Positions 3,729-20,543 of a stretch of 21,226 bases of DNA are shown here, piece after piece; positions within the stretch are counted from its first letter, which is position 1; each line of letters begins with the position of its first letter. A program made the position numbers and the translations under genes. Origin of the DNA: Candidatus Tayloriibacteriota bacterium (GTDB lineage Bacteria; Patescibacteriota; Minisyncoccia; Phycocordibacterales; GWA1-40-21); contig JAPLZG010000083.1 in NCBI GenBank assembly GCA_026395155.1, positions 1 to 21,226 on the forward strand, in the 5' to 3' direction. The notes under the pieces are model-generated. The model was given only the letters and a program-made list of their open reading frames with translations, did no database searches and was not told where the DNA came from.

Positions 3729-3739
3729 TACATTATTTC

Positions 3740-3785
3740 TTATTCGTATTCATTCGTATCATTAGTATAATTCGTATATTGGTAT
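3740..3785. repeat. Dispersed ATACGAAT-type repeat, copy 1
   Basis: ttattcgtattcattcgtatcattagtataattcgtatattggtat lies between the nadK stop and the RNHCP start. Confidence 0.8.
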
Positions 3786-3787
3786 GT

Positions 3788-4483
3788 TTAACTTAATACT
3801 CTTATTATCTTCGCCTTGTTTGCTGATTTTTTAATTATTATCTCATCATTGTCTTCGAGCAATATTTCACTTTCCCCATTATCAGCATAAACAAGCGCAG
3901 GTCCACGAATTATTTTAATTTTTATATTTGAATCTTCTTTAAGAACCATATGATCAGATTGTTCAGTACTATTATTGAAAGCAACTCCGATACCTATTTC
4001 AAAAAAACTATCAGCAATAGATCTGTAATATCCAGTAGAACCAAAAGGTGTTGCAATAATTACTCCATCCCCTATTATTTGTCCGCCAATTTTTTTATCA
4101 TTAACAAATAACTCATATCTTATCGCTCTCCTAGGATTAAAATTATGAACAACTATTTCGTTTAAACCAACCAATTTTTTTCCTTCAAAAAAAGCTGAGA
4201 TTTTCATCTCTTTTTCAATTATATATTTCCTAGAAATAACCTTTTTTAATAATTCTTCTTTGGGAATATTATGACCCTTTTTGCATGTTTCACTTCTCTT
4301 AACAATAAATTTTGGAATTCCGGGATACTTTGCTTCGGCTTTCATAAAAGTTCCATCGCCTCCATAACTTGCAACAACATCTGGTTTTTCTTTTTTATCA
4401 GAATCATCAATAATCTTAAAACCGATCTTTTTTACCAAATCGATTATTTCGTCTCTTTTTTTACCATGGATAATAATTTTCAT
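3788..4483 (-). CDS. nadK: NAD(+) kinase
   Basis: 231 aa with the GGDGT motif (SYGGDGTFMKA), NEIVV, and GDGVIIATPFGSTGYYRS, the NAD kinase C-terminal signature. Confidence 0.9.
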   Translation of the reverse strand: MKIIIHGKKRDEIIDLVKKIGFKIIDDSDKKEKPDVVASYGGDGTFMKAEAKYPGIPKFIVKRSETCKKGHNIPKEELLKKVISRKYIIEKEMKISAFFEGKKLVGLNEIVVHNFNPRRAIRYELFVNDKKIGGQIIGDGVIIATPFGSTGYYRSIADSFFEIGIGVAFNNSTEQSDHMVLKEDSNIKIKIIRGPALVYADNGESEILLEDNDEIIIKKSANKAKIIRVLS

Positions 4484-4722: not shown

Positions 4723-5001
4723 CAAATGAGAATGACCCTATTGGGGCTATTTTCATTTGTCGGAGTGAACGAGCAAAAGTCTTTGCTCGTAGGTTGAAAA
4801 GTGAATACTTGGAACTTTTCAAAGACGGAACGAGCAAGGGCGAATGAGTCGGGATCGAGAAATTTTTCAGCAGAAAAATATTCGTGATACTGACCCTGTA
4901 AGGGTCGAAATTCCCGGCACGTCCTCGTAAAGCCCTGGGAGTGCTTTACGAGGATTCTATCTTCTCTGCATTGCTTGCGTCCGGGATTCAAACAGCAGTT
5001 T

Positions 5002-5706
5002 TTAAACCTCCTTATACTCAAACATTTCTGGTGGAAAATTCACCCCTTTTTTCATAACAGTGTCATCAGCTCCAATAAAATATAATTCTTTTGGACTAGC
5101 ATATATTGCATAGCCACCCCCTCCACCCAATCCCCCAACATAATATGCATCGGGTTTAATTGTCGGTAAACTAAGATTCTGTCCAGATGCAAGCTGCATC
5201 GGAATAGTAGGAACAAAATCTTCTTCCCCCAATAACATTGTAGTTTTTAATTCACCACTATCAATCATTTTTTGTAAGTGTCTAATTTCTTCTACTGATA
5301 ATCCTTCTCCACCGATAGTCTTTTCTGCACCTATAGTTTTGTTAGTAAGTTTCTTTAATGCTGAAACAATGTGACCAAGATAATCACTATCTCTTACTAT
5401 TTCTCCTCCACTTTCAGGATCATTTATTACATTGGGTGAAATATGGATAATTGAAACACTGTCTGGAGTCTGCATAATCAAACCACTACATTCATAAAAA
5501 CCCTTAGCCAATATTGCACTGTTATGACTGACACGTCCCTCTACCCCACTTCCTTTTTTGTAATCAAACTCTACTTCTGGAAGCTTTGCCCTATCTTCTC
5601 TAAATTGTTCTTGGACTTTCAGGTTATCTCCTCTTTTCTCTCTTTCTACTTTAGAAAATGACTTAATCCAAGCTCCAAATCTATCAAAAGGACTATCAGT
5701 AGTCAT
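5002..5706 (-). CDS. Hypothetical protein, 234 aa
   Basis: Long intact ORF with host-like composition. No family recognised. Confidence 0.6.
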   Translation of the reverse strand: MTTDSPFDRFGAWIKSFSKVEREKRGDNLKVQEQFREDRAKLPEVEFDYKKGSGVEGRVSHNSAILAKGFYECSGLIMQTPDSVSIIHISPNVINDPESGGEIVRDSDYLGHIVSALKKLTNKTIGAEKTIGGEGLSVEEIRHLQKMIDSGELKTTMLLGEEDFVPTIPMQLASGQNLSLPTIKPDAYYVGGLGGGGGYAIYASPKELYFIGADDTVMKKGVNFPPEMFEYKEV

Positions 5707-5765
5707 TTCTCTTTCTTTTCTATATTCTTCTCTCGGCTTGAAAACAGCTCTCCATCTTTTTCTTT

Positions 5766-9603: not shown

Positions 9604-9737
9604 CCAGTGAATAGGTTTTAGGTGCTAGTTTCTAGGTTTTAGTATCAAAAATCTATATTATAGGCCGTATTTTTATGTTTCACATGAAATCATCTGTATT
9701 CATCTCCTCCGAATAGTGTAGTACGAAGTACTTCCAA

Positions 9738-9832
9738 TAAATCCCATCCTTGGTTGAGGAGGGGTGGTGAGTCTGCGAACCGGGGTGGTGTGTTTGGAGG
9801 AGTACCGAGTCTTCGAGGGGAGGTGGTGTAAT
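9738..9832. repeat. G+C-rich conserved element, copy A (candidate structured RNA or protein-binding array)
   Basis: Aligns along about 95 nt with 20440-20543. Shared features are aaatcccat, a ccttNNttRagg hairpin, GGGGTGGTGAGTCTGCGAACCGGGGYGGTGTGT and GAGGGGAGGTGGTGT. Confidence 0.7.
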
Positions 9833-9974
9833 CTCCTCTATTCCAAACTTAAAGACAAAAAAACCATATCTTAAGCCAAATTTTATGTTTCATGTGAAAA
9901 AAAGTAGGCCACCCCACACCTTTTTATAAATATGCAACCCCAAATACCAAGATCATACGGACTCGTGCTTGTAT

Positions 9975-10019
9975 TATTCGTATCCATTCGTATCATTAGT
10001 ATAATTCGTATATTGGTAT
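9975..10019. repeat. Dispersed ATACGAAT-type repeat, copy 2
   Basis: ttattcgtatccattcgtatcattagtataattcgtatattggtat is near-identical to 3740-3785 and 17260-17305. It is flanked by a 37-nt direct duplication (9935-9971 / 10034-10071). Confidence 0.8.
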
Positions 10020-10605
10020 TATTCATTCGTTAACAACCCCAAACACCAAAGGTCATACGGACTCGTGCTTGGGAAAGCAGAAGGATGGACTATTCGTCCC
10101 CGCACTCGTCCTGGATTGGTGAGGGGTTAGGAAAATACAGTCGCTTCACTCGTTATTTTCCACAAAAAAAACCGCCCTAACTCTGAGCAGAGCAGTGGGC
10201 GGGTCGAAAAGCGACACCTCGTGAGTTTGCATCCCCTTAAAACATCTTACCGTTTTATAAAAAATGTTTGTAGGATAGATGTAAGGGAAGGAAAAAAGAT
10301 GTGAACATCACCAAGCGAACTTTTCAATTTCGAAGCGCGATCAACGCTTCAGAAAGAACATTCAACTAGATTGTCGAGGAGAACAAGAAACTTGAGTTGC
10401 ATGTCTAATTTCTTATTTGACTTTCCAATTGATCCTTAGTAATTAAAGGACATTCATTATATGACTACAAATAAGGATATTATTTCTAATAATTTTAGAA
10501 TTAAAATATTTTATTCAGTTAAAATTATTTACTTGCCATACATTTTAACAAATTTTGCTTTTTATTTTTAAAAAAATAAATTTAATTCATAAAAAAATAT
10601 CTTTG

Positions 10606-10614
10606 TGATATAAT
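10606..10614 (+). promoter_or_regulatory. Extended -10 promoter element upstream of the TrmB-like gene
   Basis: TGaTATAAT lies 17 nt upstream of the ATG at 10631. No clear -35 element was found. Confidence 0.4.
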
Positions 10615-10630
10615 AAAAAGTATAAAAGAT

Positions 10631-11377
10631 ATGTTTGAAAAATATTTAAAAGAAATTGGATTGAGTGAAAAAGAAGCAGAAGTTTATCTAGCACTTTTAC
10701 GAGGTGACAGTTTTTCAATATTAGAAATTTCTAAAAAAACAAAAATAAATCGAACAACAATTTATCCTGTAATAAAATCTTTATCTGAAAAAGGTTTAGT
10801 TAGTGAAACAACCACAAATACAAAAGTAAATTACCAAGCTGAATCTCCAGATAGATTAGAAACTTTTATAGAGAGACAAAAGATACTTCTCGAAGAGAAT
10901 TCAAAGAAAATGAAGGATATTATTCCTCAATTAAAAAGTACTCAAAGGGAAGTGGGGGAGAGACCTGTTGTGAAATATTTTGAAGGTAAAGAGGGAATAA
11001 TAAGCGTAAATGAAGATCTCTTTAGTAATCCAGTAGAGGGGGAAAAGGCTTATATGATATATTCTAAAGATCTTGTGAATGAGGTCTTTAAAAAAGATGA
11101 AACAGCCAAATTTAAAAATAACAGAATTAAAGAAAAAATAAAAGGAATATCAATATATAATTATAAAGATAATAGTATTCCGAGTGATGAAACTTCAACA
11201 AGACTAAAAATTGATGAAAACAAATACCCCATAAATTGCGATATATCAATATACAAGGATAAAATTAGAATAGCTACGTTGAAAAAAAATCTATCAGGAA
11301 TTTATATTCAGAGTACCGATCTAGCGGAGACTATGAAAAGTTTAATTAGACTGATTCATGATTTACTAGCTAAATAA
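10631..11377 (+). CDS. TrmB-family transcriptional regulator
   Basis: 248 aa. The N-terminus LGLSEKEAEVYLALLRGDSFSILEISKKTKINRTTIYPVIKSLSEKGLVS is a typical TrmB winged-helix domain. Confidence 0.8.
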   Translation: MFEKYLKEIGLSEKEAEVYLALLRGDSFSILEISKKTKINRTTIYPVIKSLSEKGLVSETTTNTKVNYQAESPDRLETFIERQKILLEENSKKMKDIIPQLKSTQREVGERPVVKYFEGKEGIISVNEDLFSNPVEGEKAYMIYSKDLVNEVFKKDETAKFKNNRIKEKIKGISIYNYKDNSIPSDETSTRLKIDENKYPINCDISIYKDKIRIATLKKNLSGIYIQSTDLAETMKSLIRLIHDLLAK

Positions 11378-11386
11378 ATTAAAAGA

Positions 11387-11415
11387 GGGGCTCGGATGAA
11401 AATCATCCGAGCCCC
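11387..11415 (+). terminator. Strong hairpin after the TrmB-like gene, a terminator candidate without a clean U-tract
   Basis: ggggctcggatga-aaa-tcatccgagcccc forms a 13-bp stem. The downstream sequence ttgagcc is not T-rich. Confidence 0.5.
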
Positions 11416-11802
11416 TTGAGCCAAAAGGTCATTGAAATTAACACCTTTTGATACTAAGCTGTGTGTTTTAGTCTCACCTCCGAAGTTGGTTGTTGAAGAA
11501 CATAAAATACCCGACATCTGAAACAAGTATAGCAAATTAAAAATCTTTGTCAAGCAATTTTGACAGTTTTATCTATTTTGTATCTATAAATGCTAAAATG
11601 TGCCCGATTTATATGGGTATTTTTGATATTAGCTAAAAAATAGGTGTTTTTGACCAAAAACACACTGAAATTAGTACAAAATGGTAAAAGTTTATGTCAA
11701 AATTTAATGTATTATGTTTATGCTCGTTGACATTATATACCATATTTAATCTTTATTCATAGCCATATTTTTTATATCTAAAAAAGAAAATGTCATTTTC
11801 AC

Positions 11803-11830
11803 TTGACAAAAACATGATTTCATATATACT
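11803..11830 (+). promoter_or_regulatory. Sigma-70-type promoter of the hammerhead island
   Basis: TTGACA (11803-11808), a 16-nt spacer, then TATACT (11825-11830). A TGTCA-N8-TGACA inverted repeat (11791-11808) overlaps the -35 element. Confidence 0.6.
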
Positions 11831-11855
11831 GTCTTTAGAAAGTTAATTTTGATCC

Positions 11856-11909
11856 GTTTCCTTCTGAGTGCTTCCGCCTAGATAATATCGCGGACACTCA
11901 GAAGGGAAC
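11856..11909 (+). other. Long leader hairpin at the 5' end of the island transcript
   Basis: gtttccttctgagtg pairs with cactcagaagggaac (15 bp). An inner tccgc/gcgga stem carries a 12-nt loop. Confidence 0.7.
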
Positions 11910-12003
11910 AGATCAGTCTGAAGTTCATCGTCAGAAAAACTTTCCTAAGTTTATTAAATAGGAGGTAACATTCAGAACCAAATCTGAAAATGGGGATACC
12001 AAC

Positions 12004-12075
12004 ATGACATACTACGTCGTGAATGGTGTCGTCTTCATGAGCCATAAAGAGGCTCTTGAAGCGATGCGGGGTTAA
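12004..12075 (+). CDS. Possible 23-aa micro-ORF (MTYYVVNGVVFMSHKEALEAMRG)
   Basis: ATG-to-TAA frame read directly from the sequence. No convincing SD lies at the correct spacing; the AGGAGG at 11960-11965 is too far upstream. Confidence 0.2.
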   Translation: MTYYVVNGVVFMSHKEALEAMRG

Positions 12076-12135
12076 ACTCCCCATTATCCGAGCAAACAGC
12101 TCGTTGCGACAAAATCCGGTCGCCTAAAAGCAGGT

Positions 12136-12223
12136 AAAAAGTTTTGTCACAGTTTTACTTTGAAAAAATGTGAGCCTAGAGGAAGCAGAGCCTCACCGAG
12201 ACGAAAGTTTCGGTTTCTGTCTC
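12136..12223 (+). repeat. Left copy of the 88-nt perfect direct repeat, ending 2 nt past the HHR1 cleavage site
   Basis: aaaaagttttgtcacagttttactttgaaaaaatgtgagcctagaggaagcagagcctcaccgagacgaaagtttcggtttctgtctc is identical to 14081-14168. Weaker similarity extends about 28 nt further upstream. Confidence 0.95.
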
Positions 12224-12291
12224 CGACCCAGTCGGACTGATGAGTTTTCCATTACAATCTCTAGTGAGGTTGGTGGTATGACGAAACAGAG
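12214..12291 (+). ncRNA. Hammerhead ribozyme HHR1 (type III topology, long stem II); predicted cleavage after C12221
   Basis: uuucuGUC, then stem I tccgac-cca-gtcgga, then CUGAUGA (12237-12243). A 39-nt imperfect stem II follows, then GAAA (12283-12286), then cagag pairing with uucug. Confidence 0.9.
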
Positions 12292-12318
12292 TGTTCTTTA
12301 AAATTAAAAGGAAAAAAA

Positions 12319-12519
12319 GTGAGTACAAATAAAACTTTCACAATCGGGGAATTTGTTTTTATTTTAGTGGGTGTGGTTTTTTTGTTAATTGCAATCTACT
12401 ACACCACGGTAGCTTTTATTCACAAAGAGACGCCCCCGATTCAATCCAATATCGCGGAACTAATGGGGATCTTGAATCTCTTTACAGCTTTTATATTAAG
12501 GGCTGCACTCAAAAAATAA
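12319..12519 (+). CDS. Small membrane protein, 66 aa, two predicted TM helices
   Basis: GTG start with AAAGGA 6 nt upstream. Hydrophobic segments are FVFILVGVVFLLIAIYYTTVAF and LMGILNLFTAFILRAAL. Confidence 0.6.
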   Translation: MSTNKTFTIGEFVFILVGVVFLLIAIYYTTVAFIHKETPPIQSNIAELMGILNLFTAFILRAALKK

Positions 12520-12572
12520 CGTAAAGAAATGGGTACGTTTAAACCCCATTCAACCCGGATATGATATCTGGG

Positions 12573-12655
12573 TTCTGTCCTGAGATAGGTTTTCTCAGAT
12601 GATGAGTCCAAACCTAAATCAATTTTATTGATCGACAGAGAAGGACGAAACAGAA
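12573..12655 (+). ncRNA. Hammerhead-like motif HHR2 (type III topology, variant core AUGAUGA); predicted cleavage after C12579
   Basis: uucuGUC, then stem I ctgaga-taggttt-tctcag, then AUGAUGA (A in place of C3). Stem II is gtcc...ggac with an inner atcaat/attgat hairpin. GAAA (12647-12650) follows, then cagaa pairing perfectly with uucug. Confidence 0.55.
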
Positions 12656-12730
12656 GTTCTTTGTAAAGACGTTCAGATAATCGTCTTTAAACAATCTGCG
12701 TAAAGCATGCGTTAATGCCTCGGAGAAAAC

Positions 12731-12871
12731 ATGCCACAGGGAAGGCGAGAGCTTACCTGCACTAAGTGCAAAAAGGTTTTCAAAACACATTCGTCCAATC
12801 GGACATTGTGTCACACCTGCAAGCCTAAGTGCAGAGAGCGTCACTACTTCAAAAAAGTAGCGACACTCTAG
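12731..12871 (+). CDS. Zinc-ribbon small protein, 46 aa (not in the supplied ORF track)
   Basis: MPQGRRELTCTKCKKVFKTHSSNRTLCHTCKPKCRERHYFKKVATL has paired CxxC motifs (C10/C13 and C27/C30). GGAG lies 6 nt upstream of the ATG. Confidence 0.6.
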   Translation: MPQGRRELTCTKCKKVFKTHSSNRTLCHTCKPKCRERHYFKKVATL

Positions 12872-13049
12872 CCAAGCGCAGTATCTTCCGGAAGGTCTAA
12901 GAGTCAGACCGTTTTGCGAACCGGACGAGGTGGAGAAAACCACCTTTAGAACAGAAGTAAGTAAGGGCACATAACTCTACATAATGTCCTGGAAACAAAA
13001 ATCCGTGGAGAAAACCACGTGAAAAACCCGAACATGCAATGTGTTCGGT

Positions 13050-13102
13050 TTCTGTCTCACGATATGTTTCGTGACTGATGAGTCCAGAAGGACGAAACAG
13101 AA
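13050..13102 (+). ncRNA. Hammerhead ribozyme HHR3 (minimal type III); predicted cleavage after C13056
   Basis: uucuGUC, then stem I tcacga-tatgtt-tcgtga, then CUGAUGA (13075-13081). Stem II is gtcc-agaa-ggac, followed by GAAA (13094-13097) and cagaa. Confidence 0.92.
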
Positions 13103-13153
13103 TCCCAGTAGTAGAGCAAAGCTTACTACGGGGCAAGTGTTCTTTTAAAAAAC

Positions 13154-13207
13154 GTCCTGCGTTTTAATTTGAAATTATTTTTTTAATTTTAAATTAAAAC
13201 GCAGGAC
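13154..13207. other. Long perfect AT-rich hairpin inside the non-coding unit
   Basis: gtcctgcgttttaattt pairs with aaattaaaacgcaggac (17 bp), plus inner aaatta/taattt pairing. The minus-strand reading is followed by a T-run, so it would look like a minus-strand terminator. Confidence 0.75.
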
Positions 13208-13480
13208 CCTTGCAGGGGTTTGGCTAATTGCCCTCAGGTTGGGTGCACTCTCCTGAGAACTGAGTAGATTTAAGACTCAGAGCGAAATATCTCTTTACGA
13301 AGAGTATTTCGGTAGGGGTGTTCTAAAATACCTCACACTGCACGGCATGGAGATGTCGTTAATCCAAAACTAAAGCGAAAACTCACGTCCCGCATTTTTA
13401 GGGACGTCGACTTCGCTTAATGTTTGGGATATCTCCCGAGGGTGTTGTTGGGTGTCTGAATACATCCAACAGCATCCTCG

Positions 13481-13558
13481 TCTCTGTCTCCGACCCAGTC
13501 GGACTGATGAGTTTTTCATTACAATCTCTTGCGAGGTTGGTGATAAGACGAAACAGAG
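13481..13558 (+). ncRNA. Hammerhead ribozyme HHR4 (type III, long stem II, paralogue of HHR1); predicted cleavage after C13488
   Basis: cucuGUC, then stem I tccgac-cca-gtcgga, then CUGAUGA (13504-13510). A 39-nt stem II follows, then GAAA (13550-13553), then cagag pairing perfectly with cucug. Confidence 0.9.
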
Positions 13559-13581
13559 TGTTCTTTACAAGGATTTCCAAA

Positions 13582-13794
13582 ATGAAAAAGCAGACAATTC
13601 GAGACATAGTGATAGAAAAAGCGAGTAGTCGAATTAATAATGATGAGATATCGGATTACAAAGATTTTGCGGACGCTCTCAGTAGTAACATTGGCGACAT
13701 TTTGCTTCTTCGTCCGAGAATTGCCAGCCTTTTTGAGGATATGCCGGATGGCTTTCAGAGCCCTCGTGGATTCTCTGATTGGTTGGTTCAATGA
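13582..13794 (+). CDS. Hypothetical small protein, 70 aa
   Basis: ATG preceded by AAGGA. The ORF-track N-terminus (13420-13581) runs through HHR4 and is rejected. The protein begins MKKQTIRDIVIEKASSRINNDE... Confidence 0.6.
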   Translation: MKKQTIRDIVIEKASSRINNDEISDYKDFADALSSNIGDILLLRPRIASLFEDMPDGFQSPRGFSDWLVQ

Positions 13795-13864
13795 TGTTGC
13801 TGATTAACATTCAAAATCAGACGGCCCCAACCCGATGTTGGGAAGATTTATTTCTGAGGATTTT

Positions 13865-14008
13865 ATGAGTCTAGCCGGGATTAAAACGGGATCGGGACAT
13901 ACCAAGGGACACTCCAACAAGAAAAGGTGGACAACCCATCAAATCTTGAAGGAGTCTTCCAAAAGGAAGTCTCGCATTCTCGGGCGGCTGGAATGCCGTC
14001 AGATCTGA
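13865..14008 (+). CDS. Possible basic small protein, 47 aa
   Basis: MSLAGIKTGSGHTKGHSNKKRWTTHQILKESSKRKSRILGRLECRQI, with GAGG 5 nt upstream of the ATG. Not in the ORF track. Confidence 0.35.
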   Translation: MSLAGIKTGSGHTKGHSNKKRWTTHQILKESSKRKSRILGRLECRQI

Positions 14009-14080
14009 ATTAATCAACAGACTTAAGCAACTCTTCAAAGACAATTGAAGTTTCCACAAATCCGGTGGTAGAAAAAAAGG

Positions 14081-14168
14081 AAAAAGTTTTGTCACAGTTT
14101 TACTTTGAAAAAATGTGAGCCTAGAGGAAGCAGAGCCTCACCGAGACGAAAGTTTCGGTTTCTGTCTC
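14081..14168 (+). repeat. Right copy of the 88-nt perfect direct repeat, ending 2 nt past the HHR5 cleavage site
   Basis: Identical to 12136-12223 at an offset of exactly 1945 nt. Confidence 0.95.
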
Positions 14169-14212
14169 ACGATATGTTTCGTGACTGATGAGCTCATAAG
14201 AGCGAAACAGAA
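14160..14212 (+). ncRNA. Hammerhead ribozyme HHR5 (minimal type III, paralogue of HHR3); predicted cleavage after C14166
   Basis: uucuGUC, then stem I tcacga-tatgtt-tcgtga, then CUGAUGA (14185-14191). Stem II is gctc-ataa-gagc, followed by GAAA (14204-14207) and cagaa. Confidence 0.92.
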
Positions 14213-14234
14213 AATGTTCTTTGAAAGGTATTTT

Positions 14235-14456
14235 ATGGAAAGTTATCATTTCCGAAAAATGGTTTCAACCCTTCATAAAAAAAATGGTAAGAAAGGCACA
14301 TGCCCAATGTGCACACTTCGACAAGCATTGCTTTCTGGAGAAGTCACCGAGTTTGACCTCCTAAACCTTCGTGGATTCGGAAATCAAAGCCTAAATCAAG
14401 TCTACGGTTTCATGGGTTTAGAACGTAAAGTGACCTTGACGAAAATGGTTTCGTGA
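14235..14456 (+). CDS. Small protein with a helix-hairpin-helix-like motif, 73 aa
   Basis: ATG preceded by AAAGG. LLNLRGFGNQSLNQVYGFMGL resembles the RpoA-CTD-type HhH (L-x-GFG-x-x-SL-x-x-I/V). The ORF-track N-terminus runs through HHR5 and is rejected. Confidence 0.6.
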   Translation: MESYHFRKMVSTLHKKNGKKGTCPMCTLRQALLSGEVTEFDLLNLRGFGNQSLNQVYGFMGLERKVTLTKMVS

Positions 14457-14737
14457 ACTTGGCCAAAACAGAGTTCTCTTGCAAGTAGTAATCAACTTGA
14501 CCGCCCTTGTCGTGGGTTAAAAAATTACGAATATTTTAGGAGTGTTAGAAAACAACCCCTCGTAAGGTGTCGAGACAAAAAAACACCCCTATTTCTGCCT
14601 GGCCAAGAAATAGTGACCCGAGATAAAGGGAAGCGGCCCCTCTGAAAGGTATTCCTGAGTAAAGACGCCTTAGAAATAAGGTTTGAGGAACAAAATCCTC
14701 ATATTAAGGTCTTGGAATACTGAGTAAGTTGATTCTT

Positions 14738-14765
14738 ACACCTCCAGAAATGGGGGTGTTTTTTT
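14738..14765 (+). terminator. Intrinsic terminator closing the hammerhead island
   Basis: acacctcc-agaaat-gggggtgt forms 8 bp with one G-U pair, followed by TTTTTT. Confidence 0.85.
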
Positions 14766-14869
14766 GTTTGACTTTAAAAAAATAATTGATAATGTTTAAT
14801 TAGATCTTGAGGAATAATTCCGAATGTACTGGATTCTCGTAACGACAAAACCAAGAAAGTGAGTTAAAG

Positions 14870-15220
14870 ATGAAGAGAATGCTTTTACTTTTTGGTATTT
14901 TCTTTCAGGTGTATTTGTCCTTTGTATATTTTGAAATCGTCGTCATAGATGGTCATAGTATGGATCCAACCATACATAATGGGCAGATTTGTATTATGTT
15001 TAAAAAACCAAATCCGGCACCAGGGGACATAGTTGAAGCCATCGATAACGAGGATACGGTAGTGTGTAAAAGATTAATCCAATATATCGATGGTGAAATG
15101 TTCTTAATTGGTGATAACAGGGATAACAGTCTCGACAGTCGAGTTTTAGGAACTGTTCCAATGTCTAGATACAAAGGGAAAATTGTAGCTATTTTGCCAT
15201 TTACTAAATCAACAATGTGA
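14870..15220 (+). CDS. lepB: Signal peptidase I (S26 family), unusually short at 116 aa
   Basis: N-terminal TM helix, GHSMDPT (catalytic Ser box), VCKRL (Lys box) and GDNRDNSLDSR (box E). Confidence 0.8.
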   Translation: MKRMLLLFGIFFQVYLSFVYFEIVVIDGHSMDPTIHNGQICIMFKKPNPAPGDIVEAIDNEDTVVCKRLIQYIDGEMFLIGDNRDNSLDSRVLGTVPMSRYKGKIVAILPFTKSTM

Positions 15221-15265
15221 GAAAATTGATTTCTTCAAGAATGATATTTTCCGCTTGAATAAGGC

Positions 15266-15294
15266 GGGTTGCGTAGTCGCAACCCACTTTTTTT
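15266..15294 (+). terminator. Intrinsic terminator of the signal peptidase gene
   Basis: gggttgcg-tagt-cgcaaccc, then ac plus TTTTTTT. Confidence 0.85.
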
Positions 15295-15472
15295 ATGTCT
15301 AGATTTTCAAATTACTTTTTCTTAACTTACTATTTAAGTACATACACCATGGTGTATGTAAAACTTTCTCTATAACGAAAGTTTATTAATTTAATTTTTT
15401 ACTTCAACTCCAAAAATACAGGGCACCCATATAGTAGAAAATCAGAATTTTTTATTATAGGTCAAGATGATC

Positions 15473-16306
15473 TTACTTTAGTTCCAATAATACTGGACAG
15501 TGGTCACTACCAAACATATCATCAAGTATTTCTGCTTTTTTTATTTTATCTTTTAGATTTGGGGAAACAAAAAAATAATCCAAACGCCAGCCAACATTTC
15601 TATCACGAGCAAAAGTTTTCATATCCCACCAAGAATATTTTATTGTTTCAGGATGAAGTGAGCGGAAAGTATCCGTATATCCAGCTCCGACAACTTTATC
15701 AAGCCAATCTCTTTCAATTCGCAAAAAACCAGTATGGTTTGAATTTTCTTTTGGTCGCGCAATATCTATTTCGTTATGTGCAGTATTTATATCACCACAA
15801 AAAATAATTTCTTTTGCCTGCCCTGAGCTTGTCGAAGGGCCGGACTTCCTCAACTTTTCAATAAATTTCAAAAAATGATCATAAAACTCTAATTTATATT
15901 TTAATCTCTCAGGATCCACACCTCCGTTAGGGAAGTACCCATTGATTACAACCAATTCTTCCTTGAGGTCGGTCCTCAAGGAATTAATACGGCTTAAATA
16001 AATGATTATTAAACGGCCTTCCTTATCCAATTCTGGAATTCCCAATCCATATTCTACATTCGATATTCGATATTCAATATTCGATTTCACATATATTGCA
16101 ACTCCACTGTATCCTTTTCGCATTTTTGAATGATCAAAATATGCATGATATCCAGCAGGGGAAACAACCTCTTGTGGAAGTTGCTCGGGATGGGCCTTTG
16201 TTTCTTGTAAACAAAAAATATCTGGATCAACTTCAAAAATAGAATTGAAAGCTCCTTTTTTATAAAAAGCGCGAAGTCCGTTTACGTTCCAAGAAAGTAA
16301 TTTCAT
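15473..16306 (-). CDS. xth: Exodeoxyribonuclease III / AP endonuclease
   Basis: 277 aa with MKLLSWNVNGLRA, CLQETK, GDINTAHNEIDI and SDHCPV. It carries two short G+C-rich palindromic inserts (see findings). Confidence 0.92.
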   Translation of the reverse strand: MKLLSWNVNGLRAFYKKGAFNSIFEVDPDIFCLQETKAHPEQLPQEVVSPAGYHAYFDHSKMRKGYSGVAIYVKSNIEYRISNVEYGLGIPELDKEGRLIIIYLSRINSLRTDLKEELVVINGYFPNGGVDPERLKYKLEFYDHFLKFIEKLRKSGPSTSSGQAKEIIFCGDINTAHNEIDIARPKENSNHTGFLRIERDWLDKVVGAGYTDTFRSLHPETIKYSWWDMKTFARDRNVGWRLDYFFVSPNLKDKIKKAEILDDMFGSDHCPVLLELK

Positions 16307-17254: not shown

Positions 17255-17259
17255 TTGTA

Positions 17260-17305
17260 TTATTCGTATCCATTCGTATCATTAGTACCATTAGTATATT
17301 GGTAT
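17260..17305. repeat. Dispersed ATACGAAT-type repeat, copy 3
   Basis: ttattcgtatccattcgtatcattagtaccattagtatattggtat abuts the stop codon of the Xer-type recombinase gene. Confidence 0.8.
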
Positions 17306-18279
17306 TATGGTTTATTATGAAACTTTTTGTGGATATCTCGAAGATGTTTATCTGTAATATGTGTATAAATCTGAGTTGTAGCTATATTTGCGTGACCAAG
17401 CATCATTTGAACAGAACGAATATCTGCTCCATTTGAAAGTAAGTCTGTGGCGAAGCAATGGCGGATGACATGGGGTGTCACTTTTTTTGTAATTCCTGCA
17501 ATTGTTGCATATTTTTTTACAATTCTTTCTATTGTACGATGATCAAGACCTTTTAAAATTTCTTTACTTAAGACTCCACCCTTTTTATTTTTATTAGAAG
17601 CTTTTTTCTCATTATAAACAGGAACAAAAAGAGCATCCGACATATCTTTCCTTAAAGCTAAATATTCTTTAATAGCTTTTTTGGCTTCATCAGAAAGAAA
17701 GACCACACGCACTTTATTACCTTTTCCACGGATGGAAAATTCATCCATATTTAAATCCAAATCATTTCCAAGCGAACAAAGTTCGGCTACACGCAAACCA
17801 GTAGAGAAAAGCAATTCCAAAATTGCCTTGTCACGAGCCTTTCTTTCAGGATTTTCTTCTTTATTTGGAGCATCCATAAGACGTTTTAATTCTGCGGGGG
17901 AAATCACATCAATTGAACGTTCACCAACTTTTGCAAGCTCTATATTATCGGCTGGAAGGGAAGTAACGCCACGACGAGTAAGAAATTTAAGAAAAGTTCG
18001 CAAAGCAATCAAATAATAATTTTGAGTTTTTTTACTCATCGTACCACCAGCTGAAACTGGCTCTCCAAATAAGTGATATGCTTTTGCACCAGGTCTACGG
18101 TTGAGCCAGATACGAAATTCGCGAACTTTTTCATTGGTAATATCCTTTGGATCAGTAATTTTAGATTGACTTAAAAAAACTGTTAAATAATGGTCGTAGT
18201 TTCCAATAGTTTTCACCGCTCGTCCTTTTTCTATCTCGATATATTCGAGAAATTGAGTTTTTAGTTCGTTGATGGTCAT
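17305..18279 (-). CDS. Tyrosine recombinase, XerC/XerD family
   Basis: 324 aa with an N-terminal SAM-like domain. The C-terminus has RHCFATDLLSNGADIRSVQMMLGHANIATTQIYTH, giving the R..H-x-x-R..Y catalytic pattern. Confidence 0.9.
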   Translation of the reverse strand: MTINELKTQFLEYIEIEKGRAVKTIGNYDHYLTVFLSQSKITDPKDITNEKVREFRIWLNRRPGAKAYHLFGEPVSAGGTMSKKTQNYYLIALRTFLKFLTRRGVTSLPADNIELAKVGERSIDVISPAELKRLMDAPNKEENPERKARDKAILELLFSTGLRVAELCSLGNDLDLNMDEFSIRGKGNKVRVVFLSDEAKKAIKEYLALRKDMSDALFVPVYNEKKASNKNKKGGVLSKEILKGLDHRTIERIVKKYATIAGITKKVTPHVIRHCFATDLLSNGADIRSVQMMLGHANIATTQIYTHITDKHLRDIHKKFHNKP

Positions 18280-20439: not shown

Positions 20440-20543
20440 AAATCCCATTAGATCCCCACCTTAGTTAAGGCGGGGTGGTGAGTCTGCGAACCGGGGCGGT
20501 GTGTCTGAGGAGCACCCGAGTCCTCGAGGGGGAGGTGGTGTGA
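20440..20543. repeat. G+C-rich conserved element, copy B
   Basis: Aligns with 9738-9832, with substitutions compatible with maintained pairing (gagga..tcctc versus gagga..tcttc). Confidence 0.7.

Follow-up and report, generated by a model that had tools for sequence, protein, structure and literature searches.

What is a perfect 88-nucleotide (nt) direct repeat doing at the cleavage sites of two self-cleaving ribozymes on a bacterial contig? The question is raised by the 21,226-nt stretch shown above (contig JAPLZG010000083.1; hereafter, the window), where the two repeat copies, each ending just past the predicted cleavage site of a hammerhead ribozyme (HHR), delimit a unit of 1945 nt. The original prediction offered three readings of this arrangement, i.e., a retrozyme-like element giving rise to a circular RNA, a record of recombination at ribozyme junctions, and, as the null hypothesis, a simple tandem duplication. 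Our data favor a different answer. The segment from ~11.8 to ~14.77 kb is probably one plus-strand operon punctuated by ribozymes, in which the repeat represents homogenized copies of an RNA motif and does not mark the end of an element that moves or circularizes.

The 88-nt repeat and the hammerheads at its edge

Self-comparison of the window showed that 12136-12223 and 14081-14168 are identical at 88 of 88 nt, on the same strand and with a spacing of 1945 nt, in full agreement with what had been noticed at the outset. A perfect 88-mer repeat cannot occur by chance within 21 kb. When the flanks are included (12127-12223 versus 14072-14168), the alignment covers 97 nt at 96% identity. The weaker similarity that had been reported upstream is also real: 26 of 41 positions (63%) match, and this stretch is the 5' hairpin domain (P0) of the RNA motif described below, with compensatory changes between the two copies (GCGAC..GTCGC versus CCAC..GTGG).

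At its downstream edge, identity extends to 12223 and 14168, that is, 2 nt past the GUC triplets of HHR1 (12219-12221) and HHR5 (14164-14166), after which different ribozyme bodies follow, just as the original prediction had it. The post-scissile UC is common to HHR1, HHR3, HHR4, and HHR5; since these four hammerheads share it, the breakpoint can be placed only within CUGUC/UC (the slash marks the predicted cleavage site).

Hammerheads were called with the RF00008 (type III) model of Rfam 15, which has a gathering score of 48.5 bits, applied to the region 10500-16000 with E values up to 10, and with our own descriptor scan, which demands the core, the cleavage triplet, and three helices. RF00008 returned five plus-strand matches within 2 kb (E 5.5e-8 to 0.036). 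The descriptor scan, whose specificity is reflected in 163 matches in 718 kb of related sequence compared with ~0.2 in shuffles, predicted cleavage after 12221, 12579, 13056, 13488, and 14166. The repeat copies and the ribozymes are located as follows:

12136-12223, plus strand: repeat copy 1, comprising the 3' part of the RNA motif, a hairpin (12195-12214), and the 5' strand of stem III with GUC
12214-12292, plus strand: HHR1, A-type with a long stem II; 28.9 bits, E 0.004; predicted cleavage after 12221
12572-12656, plus strand: HHR2, C-type with a long stem II; 25.6 bits, E 0.036; the site would be after 12579
13049-13103, plus strand: HHR3, B-type, minimal; 43.3 bits, E 3.3e-7; predicted cleavage after 13056
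13481-13559, plus strand: HHR4, A-type; 37.1 bits, E 1.9e-5; predicted cleavage after 13488
14081-14168, plus strand: repeat copy 2, identical to copy 1
14159-14213, plus strand: HHR5, B-type, minimal; 46.1 bits, E 5.5e-8; predicted cleavage after 14166

The core features of the type III class, namely CUGAUGAG, CGAAAC, and GUC, are all carried by HHR1, HHR3, HHR4, and HHR5, and the RF00008 alignments have the type III topology, in which loops cap stems I and II and stem III is left open. The hammerhead is the minimum-energy fold for HHR1, HHR3, and HHR5; HHR4 folds stems I and III, and the fold of HHR2 is not a hammerhead. The HHR2 core reads AUGAUGA and not CUGAUGA, with an A at 12599 in place of an otherwise invariant C, which makes it the sole such case among 149 unique hammerheads; judged by this defect, HHR2 may be a dead ribozyme. 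Apart from this correction, the predicted order of the array (repeat, A, C, B, A, repeat, B) holds, as does the paralogy behind it, with 92% identity over 91 nt between HHR1 and HHR4 and 92% over 59 nt between HHR3 and HHR5. Stem III sequences are near-uniform across the array, and that of HHR1 contains a U.G wobble left by the repeat boundary.

In terms of content, the 88-nt repeat is the 3' two-thirds of the RNA motif plus a generic pre-hammerhead hairpin and the 5' strand of stem III. This strand is its only ribozyme part, and it holds no complete hammerhead. The 1945-nt unit itself contains four small open reading frames (ORFs) and three internal hammerheads (sites at 12579, 13056, and 13488).

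The RNA motif inside the repeat

Most of the repeat belongs to an RNA motif with two copies in the window:

12095-12194, plus strand: RNA motif copy 1, with the P0 hairpin, a linker, the P1 hairpin, and the invariant GAGCC-NN-GAGGAAGCAGAGCCUC; 105.5 bits with covariance model R1
14042-14139, plus strand: RNA motif copy 2; 92.5 bits with covariance model R1

The pattern TTTGTC..GAGGAAGCAGAGCCTC, with a hairpin in between, was found in 52 metagenome loci, several genomes of GTDB labelled as candidate phyla radiation (CPR), and 0 IMG/VR contigs. Overall, the motif occurs in >50 contigs, and the taxon-labelled ones are Patescibacteria (CPR). An alignment of 19 full-length copies revealed compensatory changes at 5 of 5 pairs of P0 and 4 of 9 pairs of P1. 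Pairing is observed in 91.8% of the cells of this alignment versus 80.7% in shuffled ones (0 of 500 shuffles reach the observed value) and 30-52% in slid controls. The loop AAAAUCC(A/G) is conserved as well, and a pseudoknot with a downstream GGGU is possible. No Rfam 15 match to the motif was obtained in the window region (E up to 10) or in seven further loci (E up to 0.5).

A hammerhead directly follows ~40% of the motif copies. Upstream of the motif, recurrent gene partners are found in the loci that we collected from other genomes (given here by their L numbers). A micro-ORF precedes copy 1, and a small basic ORF, whose family is also found before the motif in L023, L026, L077, and L043, precedes copy 2. 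Genes encoding Csx3-like proteins (PF09620) stand directly before the motif in seven metagenome contigs (L071, L076, L088, L106, L112, L068, and L109), with the ORF ending 70-100 nt ahead of it. On this comparative evidence, the motif is a previously uncatalogued, predicted structured RNA that travels with the micro-ORF, the small basic protein, and Csx3-like proteins.

Some further observations on the motif are recorded here. In L106 and L116, the gene after the Csx3-like one looks by eye like a DHH-type phosphoesterase, and this neighborhood hints at a link to cyclic-oligonucleotide signaling. Within the window, the invariant GCAGAG of the motif (12185-12190 and 14130-14135) is complementary to UUUCUG in the 5' strand of stem III (12215-12220 and 14160-14165) and resembles the ribozyme's own 3' strand, ACAGAG, such that a competitor helix could delay cleavage. 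We did not adopt such a switch, given that the pairing is not conserved in L107 and that the motif often lacks a hammerhead. The motif was also considered as a degenerate hammerhead on account of its similar topology (UUUUGUC, a hairpin, GAGAG, CC-UAGA-GG, AA, and GCAGAG); it has no core nucleotides and no RF00008 match, and this idea is kept as a lead only. A resemblance to signal recognition particle RNA (GGAAGCAG) was rejected, as it has no Rfam support and the architecture differs.

The two copies of the motif have distinct contexts that recur elsewhere. The order micro-ORF, motif, hammerhead is found in L042, L066/L078, and L107, and the order 70-amino-acid ORF, basic ORF, motif is found in L072/L099, as in the window. 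Likewise, the motif/A-type junction occurs in L014 and L042 (in the latter after the micro-ORF, as in the window), and the motif/B-type junction occurs in L066, L078, and L080. Since both types of junction exist in other genomes, those of the window are ordinary for the family and do not represent a fresh chimera. When the 88-nt stretch was compared with 43 other motif copies, identity ranged from 59 to 83% (median, 70%). These comparisons indicate that the window copies are two old paralogues, each with its own orthologous gene partner. Given 100% identity over 88 nt, against 26 of 41 positions in the adjoining upstream part and a median of 70% elsewhere, homogenization was probably recent, and its simplest account would be a DNA-level event, either gene conversion or homologous recombination. 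The converted tract would end at CUGUC/UC because A-type and B-type hammerheads share nothing further.

Exchange among hammerheads has left traces elsewhere as well. HHR3 is a patchwork of two L107 paralogues, with the upstream hairpin and stem II matching one and stem I and the downstream hairpin matching the other, and among the hammerheads of L023, stem I may be shared while stem II is different, and the reverse. Within loci, similarity between hammerhead neighborhoods often starts or stops at the cleavage site, and there are also many matches confined to the ribozyme body. Repeats that halt at the start of stem I were found in L024 (109 nt, upstream only), L004 (60 nt), and L006 (35 nt). 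No segment varies more than stem I, and this variability is expected to produce apparent breakpoints at the cleavage site in any case. The patchwork fits DNA-level conversion among dispersed 50-nt repeats and not a single RNA cut-and-join event. The earlier suggestion of recombination at ribozyme junctions fits the comparative data in the form of DNA-level mosaicism, although exchange has also taken place away from the scissile bond (HHR3/L107 and L023).

Hammerhead arrays and rival accounts of the locus

The hammerhead pattern TCTGTCTC..CTGATGAG..CGAAACAGA was found at 61 loci in GTDB species representatives, and the taxon-labelled loci are mostly Patescibacteria (Paceibacterota, Saccharibacteria, Nomurabacteria, and others). 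Among 2.9 million viral contigs, the pattern was found in only 3, each with a lone ribozyme and not an array. In 25 of the 61 GTDB loci, the array adjoins a homologue of the TrmB-like regulator encoded in the window (13 lie upstream on the same strand, and most others are divergent); the homologue is co-directional in close relatives and mostly divergent in distant ones. All ribozymes share a single-strand orientation in 36 of 38 multi-hammerhead loci. Among 123 unique hammerheads, 88% are preceded by a predicted hairpin that stops 0-2 nt short of stem III, and the 40 nt upstream of hammerheads have a mean folding energy of -10.2 kcal/mol, compared with -4.9 for shuffled sequences. A GUUCUUU-like motif lies within a few bases after 56% of the 123 hammerheads versus 6% at control (random) positions. 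In the window, GUUCUUU(A/G)AA follows each hammerhead (12294-12306, 12658-12668, 13141-13153, 13561-13571, and 14217-14227), and the similar GUCUUUAGAAA is found at the predicted transcription start (11836-11846). Given this placement, GUUCUUU appears to be a mark shared by the 5' ends of all cassette RNAs. The ORFs led by hammerheads are hypervariable, as clustering of their 112 unique proteins (median length, 105 amino acids) gave 95 clusters, with few and miscellaneous Pfam matches (methyltransferases, a sigma factor, Csx3, and others).

Hammerhead arrays are thus common in Patescibacteria-labelled genomes and follow a fixed grammar, i.e., a TrmB-like regulator, a control region, and cassettes bounded by hairpin, hammerhead, and GUUCUUU leader, with a hypervariable and mostly uncharacterized cargo. 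Our literature search found no paper tying self-cleaving ribozymes to Patescibacteria/CPR, including Parcubacteria and Saccharibacteria. The arrays offer a testable system for the old question of why bacteria set self-cleaving ribozymes between genes.

Other forms of punctuation may exist. At 4998-5053, 5656-5711, and 6649-6704 of L110, an imperfect hairpin of ~19 bp followed by GUUCUUU occupies the position of the hammerhead and may be an RNase III-type processing site; the same locus has two motif copies within a 244-nt repeat (95%) spaced 993 nt apart. In the L107 array, 5173-5238 (minus strand) gives a weak twister-P1 match (36.7 bits, E 1.9e-4), which is under the gathering score, and mixed ribozyme classes may therefore serve as punctuation. 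Within the window array, Rfam returned no other ribozyme class, only chance-level microRNA-like matches on the big hairpin.

How would the window array work? A promoter-like site at 11803-11830 (TTGACA-16-TATACT, 11/12 match) and a terminator-like hairpin with a T-run at 14738-14759, the latter identified by a terminator scan, bracket the array, and transcription would run from ~11837 to ~14767. Motif integrity and precedent suggest that the transcript would cleave itself co-transcriptionally at four or five sites. At its start, each product would carry a 5'-OH and a folded ribozyme body; next would come a GUUCUUU-type leader, then either a small ORF or a structured RNA, and finally a stable hairpin and a UUCUGUC tail carrying a 2',3'-cyclic phosphate. 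In two of the cleavage products, the RNA motif would form the 3' domain. Such termini would plausibly set RNA stability and uncouple the expression of the cassettes from one another.

The precedent comes from the clustered hammerheads of bacterial prophage regions, where variable genes are flanked by them (Perreault et al. 2011, PMC3088659). These ribozymes have been shown to cut polycistronic RNA both in vitro and in E. coli, and their proposed role is to process such RNA into gene-length pieces (PMC3088659). Both there and in the window, several hammerheads are clustered on a single strand, and the single genes or short gene blocks that they flank are not constant. A winged-helix regulator is nearby in both cases, TrmB-like here and marR in the Agrobacterium tumefaciens example there (PMC3088659). 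The differences are that the window array resides in an apparent Patescibacteria chromosome and not in a prophage, with almost no matches in viral contigs, and that it displays the TrmB-like link, the hairpin abutting stem III, the GUUCUUU leader, and an extra RNA motif; moreover, some of the related loci are punctuated by long hairpins or a weak twister-like match. We regard the locus as a variant of the known clustered hammerheads.

RAGATH motifs are RNAs associated with genes associated with twister and hammerhead ribozymes, a class that emerged from work in the Breaker and Weinberg laboratories. Like them, the window motif is a conserved structured RNA that recurs beside self-cleaving ribozymes. 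One of them, RAGATH-18, is the guide RNA of IS607 TnpB (PMC11061315). Unlike these RNAs, the window motif has no match in Rfam 15 and no adjacent TnpB or IscB gene, and its variable 3' part is a hairpin and not a guide-like single strand.

Retrozymes are non-autonomous retroelements of plants and metazoans with hammerheads, and it was to such eukaryotic elements that the 1945-nt unit had been likened. Cleavage after 12221 and 14166 would free an RNA of 1945 nt from HHR1 to HHR5, and ligation of its ends into a circle would recreate the HHR1 context. As in retrozymes (for metazoan ones, see PMC7229834), there are hammerhead-associated direct repeats, and two cuts would free a defined RNA. Moreover, the near-uniform stem III would let any 5' product pair with any 3' product, so the circularization of single-cassette RNAs is chemically permitted, and circular products of clustered hammerheads have been considered previously (PMC3088659). 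We nonetheless hold a prokaryotic retrozyme-like or circular-RNA element to be highly improbable here. Retrozymes have a whole ribozyme inside each long repeat, whereas the window repeats contain none, ending 2 nt past the scissile bond ahead of bodies that differ. Their cargo is non-coding and free of internal ribozymes; here, there are four small ORFs and three internal hammerheads, two of them with intact cores, which would cut the unit into 358, 477, 432, and 678 nt (835 nt for the first two if HHR2 is dead). Retrozymes are flanked by target-site duplications, but the repeat flanks of the window differ (left ..CCTAAAAGCAGGT, right ACGATATGTT..), with no such duplication and with diverged motif homology continuing upstream. 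Retrozymes also exist in many copies that rely on the reverse transcriptases of retrotransposons, and the proposed check for rtcB or a reverse transcriptase came out negative among the ORFs screened in the 21-kb window. Furthermore, what is repeated is a conserved motif whose two copies each have their own orthologous context, and when the study of clustered hammerheads looked for circular or spliced products, it detected none (PMC3088659). The null hypothesis fares no better: a simple tandem duplication would produce direct repeats on the same strand 1945 nt apart, yet neither the sequence between the copies nor that beside them is otherwise duplicated at a similar level of identity, the identity gradient (92% for the A and B paralogues, 100% for the repeat, and 63% for the adjoining 5' part) and the diverged 5' parts contradict it, and each copy has a different orthologous gene partner, making this the least credible explanation of all.

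The ribozyme-punctuated operon with homogenized motif copies has points against it too. One genome cannot fix the direction or the mechanism of homogenization, and it is from the comparisons above that we infer gene conversion. All five RF00008 scores (46.1, 43.3, 37.1, 28.9, and 25.6 bits) are under the gathering score of 48.5, lowered by the long stem II inserts. The breakpoint lies inside a ribozyme, between the strands of stem III, with the U.G wobble in stem III of HHR1, and an RNA-level cut-and-join would give the same breakpoint and wobble. If cassette RNAs were joined by cleavage and re-ligation and then copied back into DNA, scissile sites would be the exchange points, in line with the position of this breakpoint within CUGUC/UC and with the frequent start or end of hammerhead-neighborhood similarity at the cleavage site; however, no reverse transcriptase was found among the window ORFs screened, single ribozymes also show switches at CUGAUGAG and at the 3' core, and cleavage-site breakpoints are expected anyway from the variability of stem I. 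We therefore consider shuffling at the RNA level very unlikely. Assembly provides a further objection, in that an exact repeat of 88 nt, which can be entered and left by two paths each, makes the assembly graph ambiguous: the path taken in the contig is one solution, and a chromosome with a single copy accompanied by a separate strain variant or a circle of 1945 bp is equally possible from the graph. The source is apparently a metagenome-assembled CPR genome, several contigs end in or near the motif or a hammerhead (L069, L092, L093, and L115), and exact protein look-ups of three window ORFs found no independent assembly. Still, 88 nt is under ordinary read length, both junction types are present in independent assemblies of other genomes, and L070 and L110 also have two motif copies per array, so that we rate an assembly artefact as quite unlikely. 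(Contig ends at cleavage sites were also considered as a sign of RNA-derived assemblies, an idea that was dropped because repeats break assemblies at the same places.) Somewhat better placed, though still unlikely, is the gain of a 1945-bp DNA cassette, perhaps as circular DNA, by a single crossover in the motif of an ancestral array of micro-ORF, motif, and B-type hammerhead. A single crossover in shared sequence makes flanking direct repeats of this kind, the order in L066/L078 (micro-ORF, motif, B-type) is the expected remainder after precise loss of the segment, and cassette order differs even from that of the closest relative, L107. Set against this, the micro-ORF followed by the motif/A-type junction also exists in L042, a GTDB relative with 75% regulator identity, and the left junction thus need not be new; in addition, the diverged 5' parts of the two copies match different orthologues, which requires either that both copies pre-existed or that the crossover fell at the left edge of the 88 nt.

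A broader and more speculative possibility, to which we give little credence, is that the TrmB-linked arrays of Patescibacteria form an integron-like cassette system with ribozyme sites as functional joints. With stem III almost the same in all ribozymes of an array, cleaved cassette RNAs could be circularized or joined via the reverse (ligation) reaction or by RtcB, and if this were true, the motif/A-type and motif/B-type junctions would record cassette exchanges. By analogy only, integron cassette arrays resemble the window in having a regulator and a promoter followed by small, hypervariable, and mostly uncharacterized genes, with a recurring structured separator where modules re-assort. 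They differ in that no integrase adjoins the window array, that the separator is a ribozyme acting at the RNA level and not an attC site, and that cassette mobility is hypothetical here.

The window array and its surroundings

The window has the look of chromosomal DNA from a small bacterium with low G+C content, apparently of the Patescibacteria (CPR) type, and it contains genes for a CCA-adding enzyme, NAD kinase, HU, exonuclease III, a Xer-like recombinase, ribosomal protein S15, and four tRNAs. The array is not in a prophage context: its flanks are housekeeping genes, and no phage genes were found in the window. In addition, a blastn search of 11450-14800 against phage and plasmid collections gave no match. 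Besides the repeat, the motif copies, and the hammerheads, the array and its borders comprise the following features:

10631-11377, plus strand: TrmB-like winged-helix regulator gene (PF01978, E 1.4e-15), directly upstream of the array
11477-11830, plus strand: AT-rich control region with palindromes, 75-78% to L107 7843-7508 and L008 790-1077
11845-11925, plus strand: long 5' leader hairpin of the first cassette, with an equivalent at L042 4700-4775
12005-12076, plus strand: micro-ORF of 23 codons, MTYYVVNGVVFMSHKEALEAMRG, before motif copy 1; orthologues precede the motif in L042, L066/L078, and L107
12319-12519, plus strand: small ORF of 66 amino acids, hydrophobic; no Pfam match and no homologue in any collected locus
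12731-12871, plus strand: small ORF of 46 amino acids, zinc-ribbon-like; weak PF13717 match, under the cut-off
12882-13048, plus strand: conserved non-coding block before HHR3, 80-82% to L008 2323-2539 and L107 4759-4545
13154-13207, plus strand: near-perfect 24-bp hairpin that opens the ORF-free cassette 13104-13480; conserved in L008, L066, and L107
13582-13794, plus strand: small ORF of 70 amino acids; 43% homologue in L072/L099, in the same cassette
13835-14008, plus strand: small basic ORF of 57 amino acids, G-S-G-x-x-K-G-H-S family, before motif copy 2; 79% in L072/L099
14235-14456, plus strand: small ORF of 73 amino acids; no Pfam match
14447-14767, plus strand: 3' terminal conserved non-coding region, 74% to L107 4198-3902, closed by the terminator-like hairpin

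The block from regulator to terminator (10625-14763) is the part shared with L107, the closest relative found; the regulators are 80.6% identical, compared with 75% for L042. Most window ORFs have no homologue in any collected locus, and 0-2 small ORFs lie between successive hammerheads. Immediately before HHR3, the hairpin 13028-13048 abuts stem III.

The micro-ORF has the pattern M-x-Y-Y-V-V-N/D-G-x-V-..-A-x-x-A and lies ~65 nt upstream of the motif in the window, L042 (4813-4884), L107 (~6781-6712, minus strand), and L066. Because it sits behind a long 5' hairpin in both the window and L042, it looks like part of a regulatory leader cassette. The block before HHR3 contains two hairpins with the same loop, at 12929-12944 (GGUG-GAGAAAA-CCACC) and 13004-13019 (CGUG-GAGAAAA-CCACG). 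A strong promoter-like site on the minus strand, with TTGACA-16-TATACT and an upstream TG, overlaps part of the control region and aims at a bidirectional terminator after the TrmB-like gene (this pair of features is at 11386-11416 and 11526-11553); the site could yield an antisense or small RNA of ~120 nt. At the other end of the array, 14575-14597 and 14745-14767 form a 23-nt inverted repeat (96% complementary) that encloses 147 nt, with the second arm overlapping the terminator-like hairpin. This region is 74% conserved in L107 and might represent either an alternative structure or the gene of a small RNA.

Two other repeats were observed in the window. The first is an 87-nt G+C-rich direct repeat (9734-9820 and 20445-20531; 80%, 10.7 kb apart) with no Rfam match at the gathering score, which may be another uncatalogued RNA or a regulatory element. 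The second is a 54-nt AT-rich intergenic element with TTCGTAT/TAGTAT units, present at 3735-3788, 9969-10022, and 17255-17308 with 89-94% identity, and is possibly a lineage-specific promoter or protein-binding repeat.

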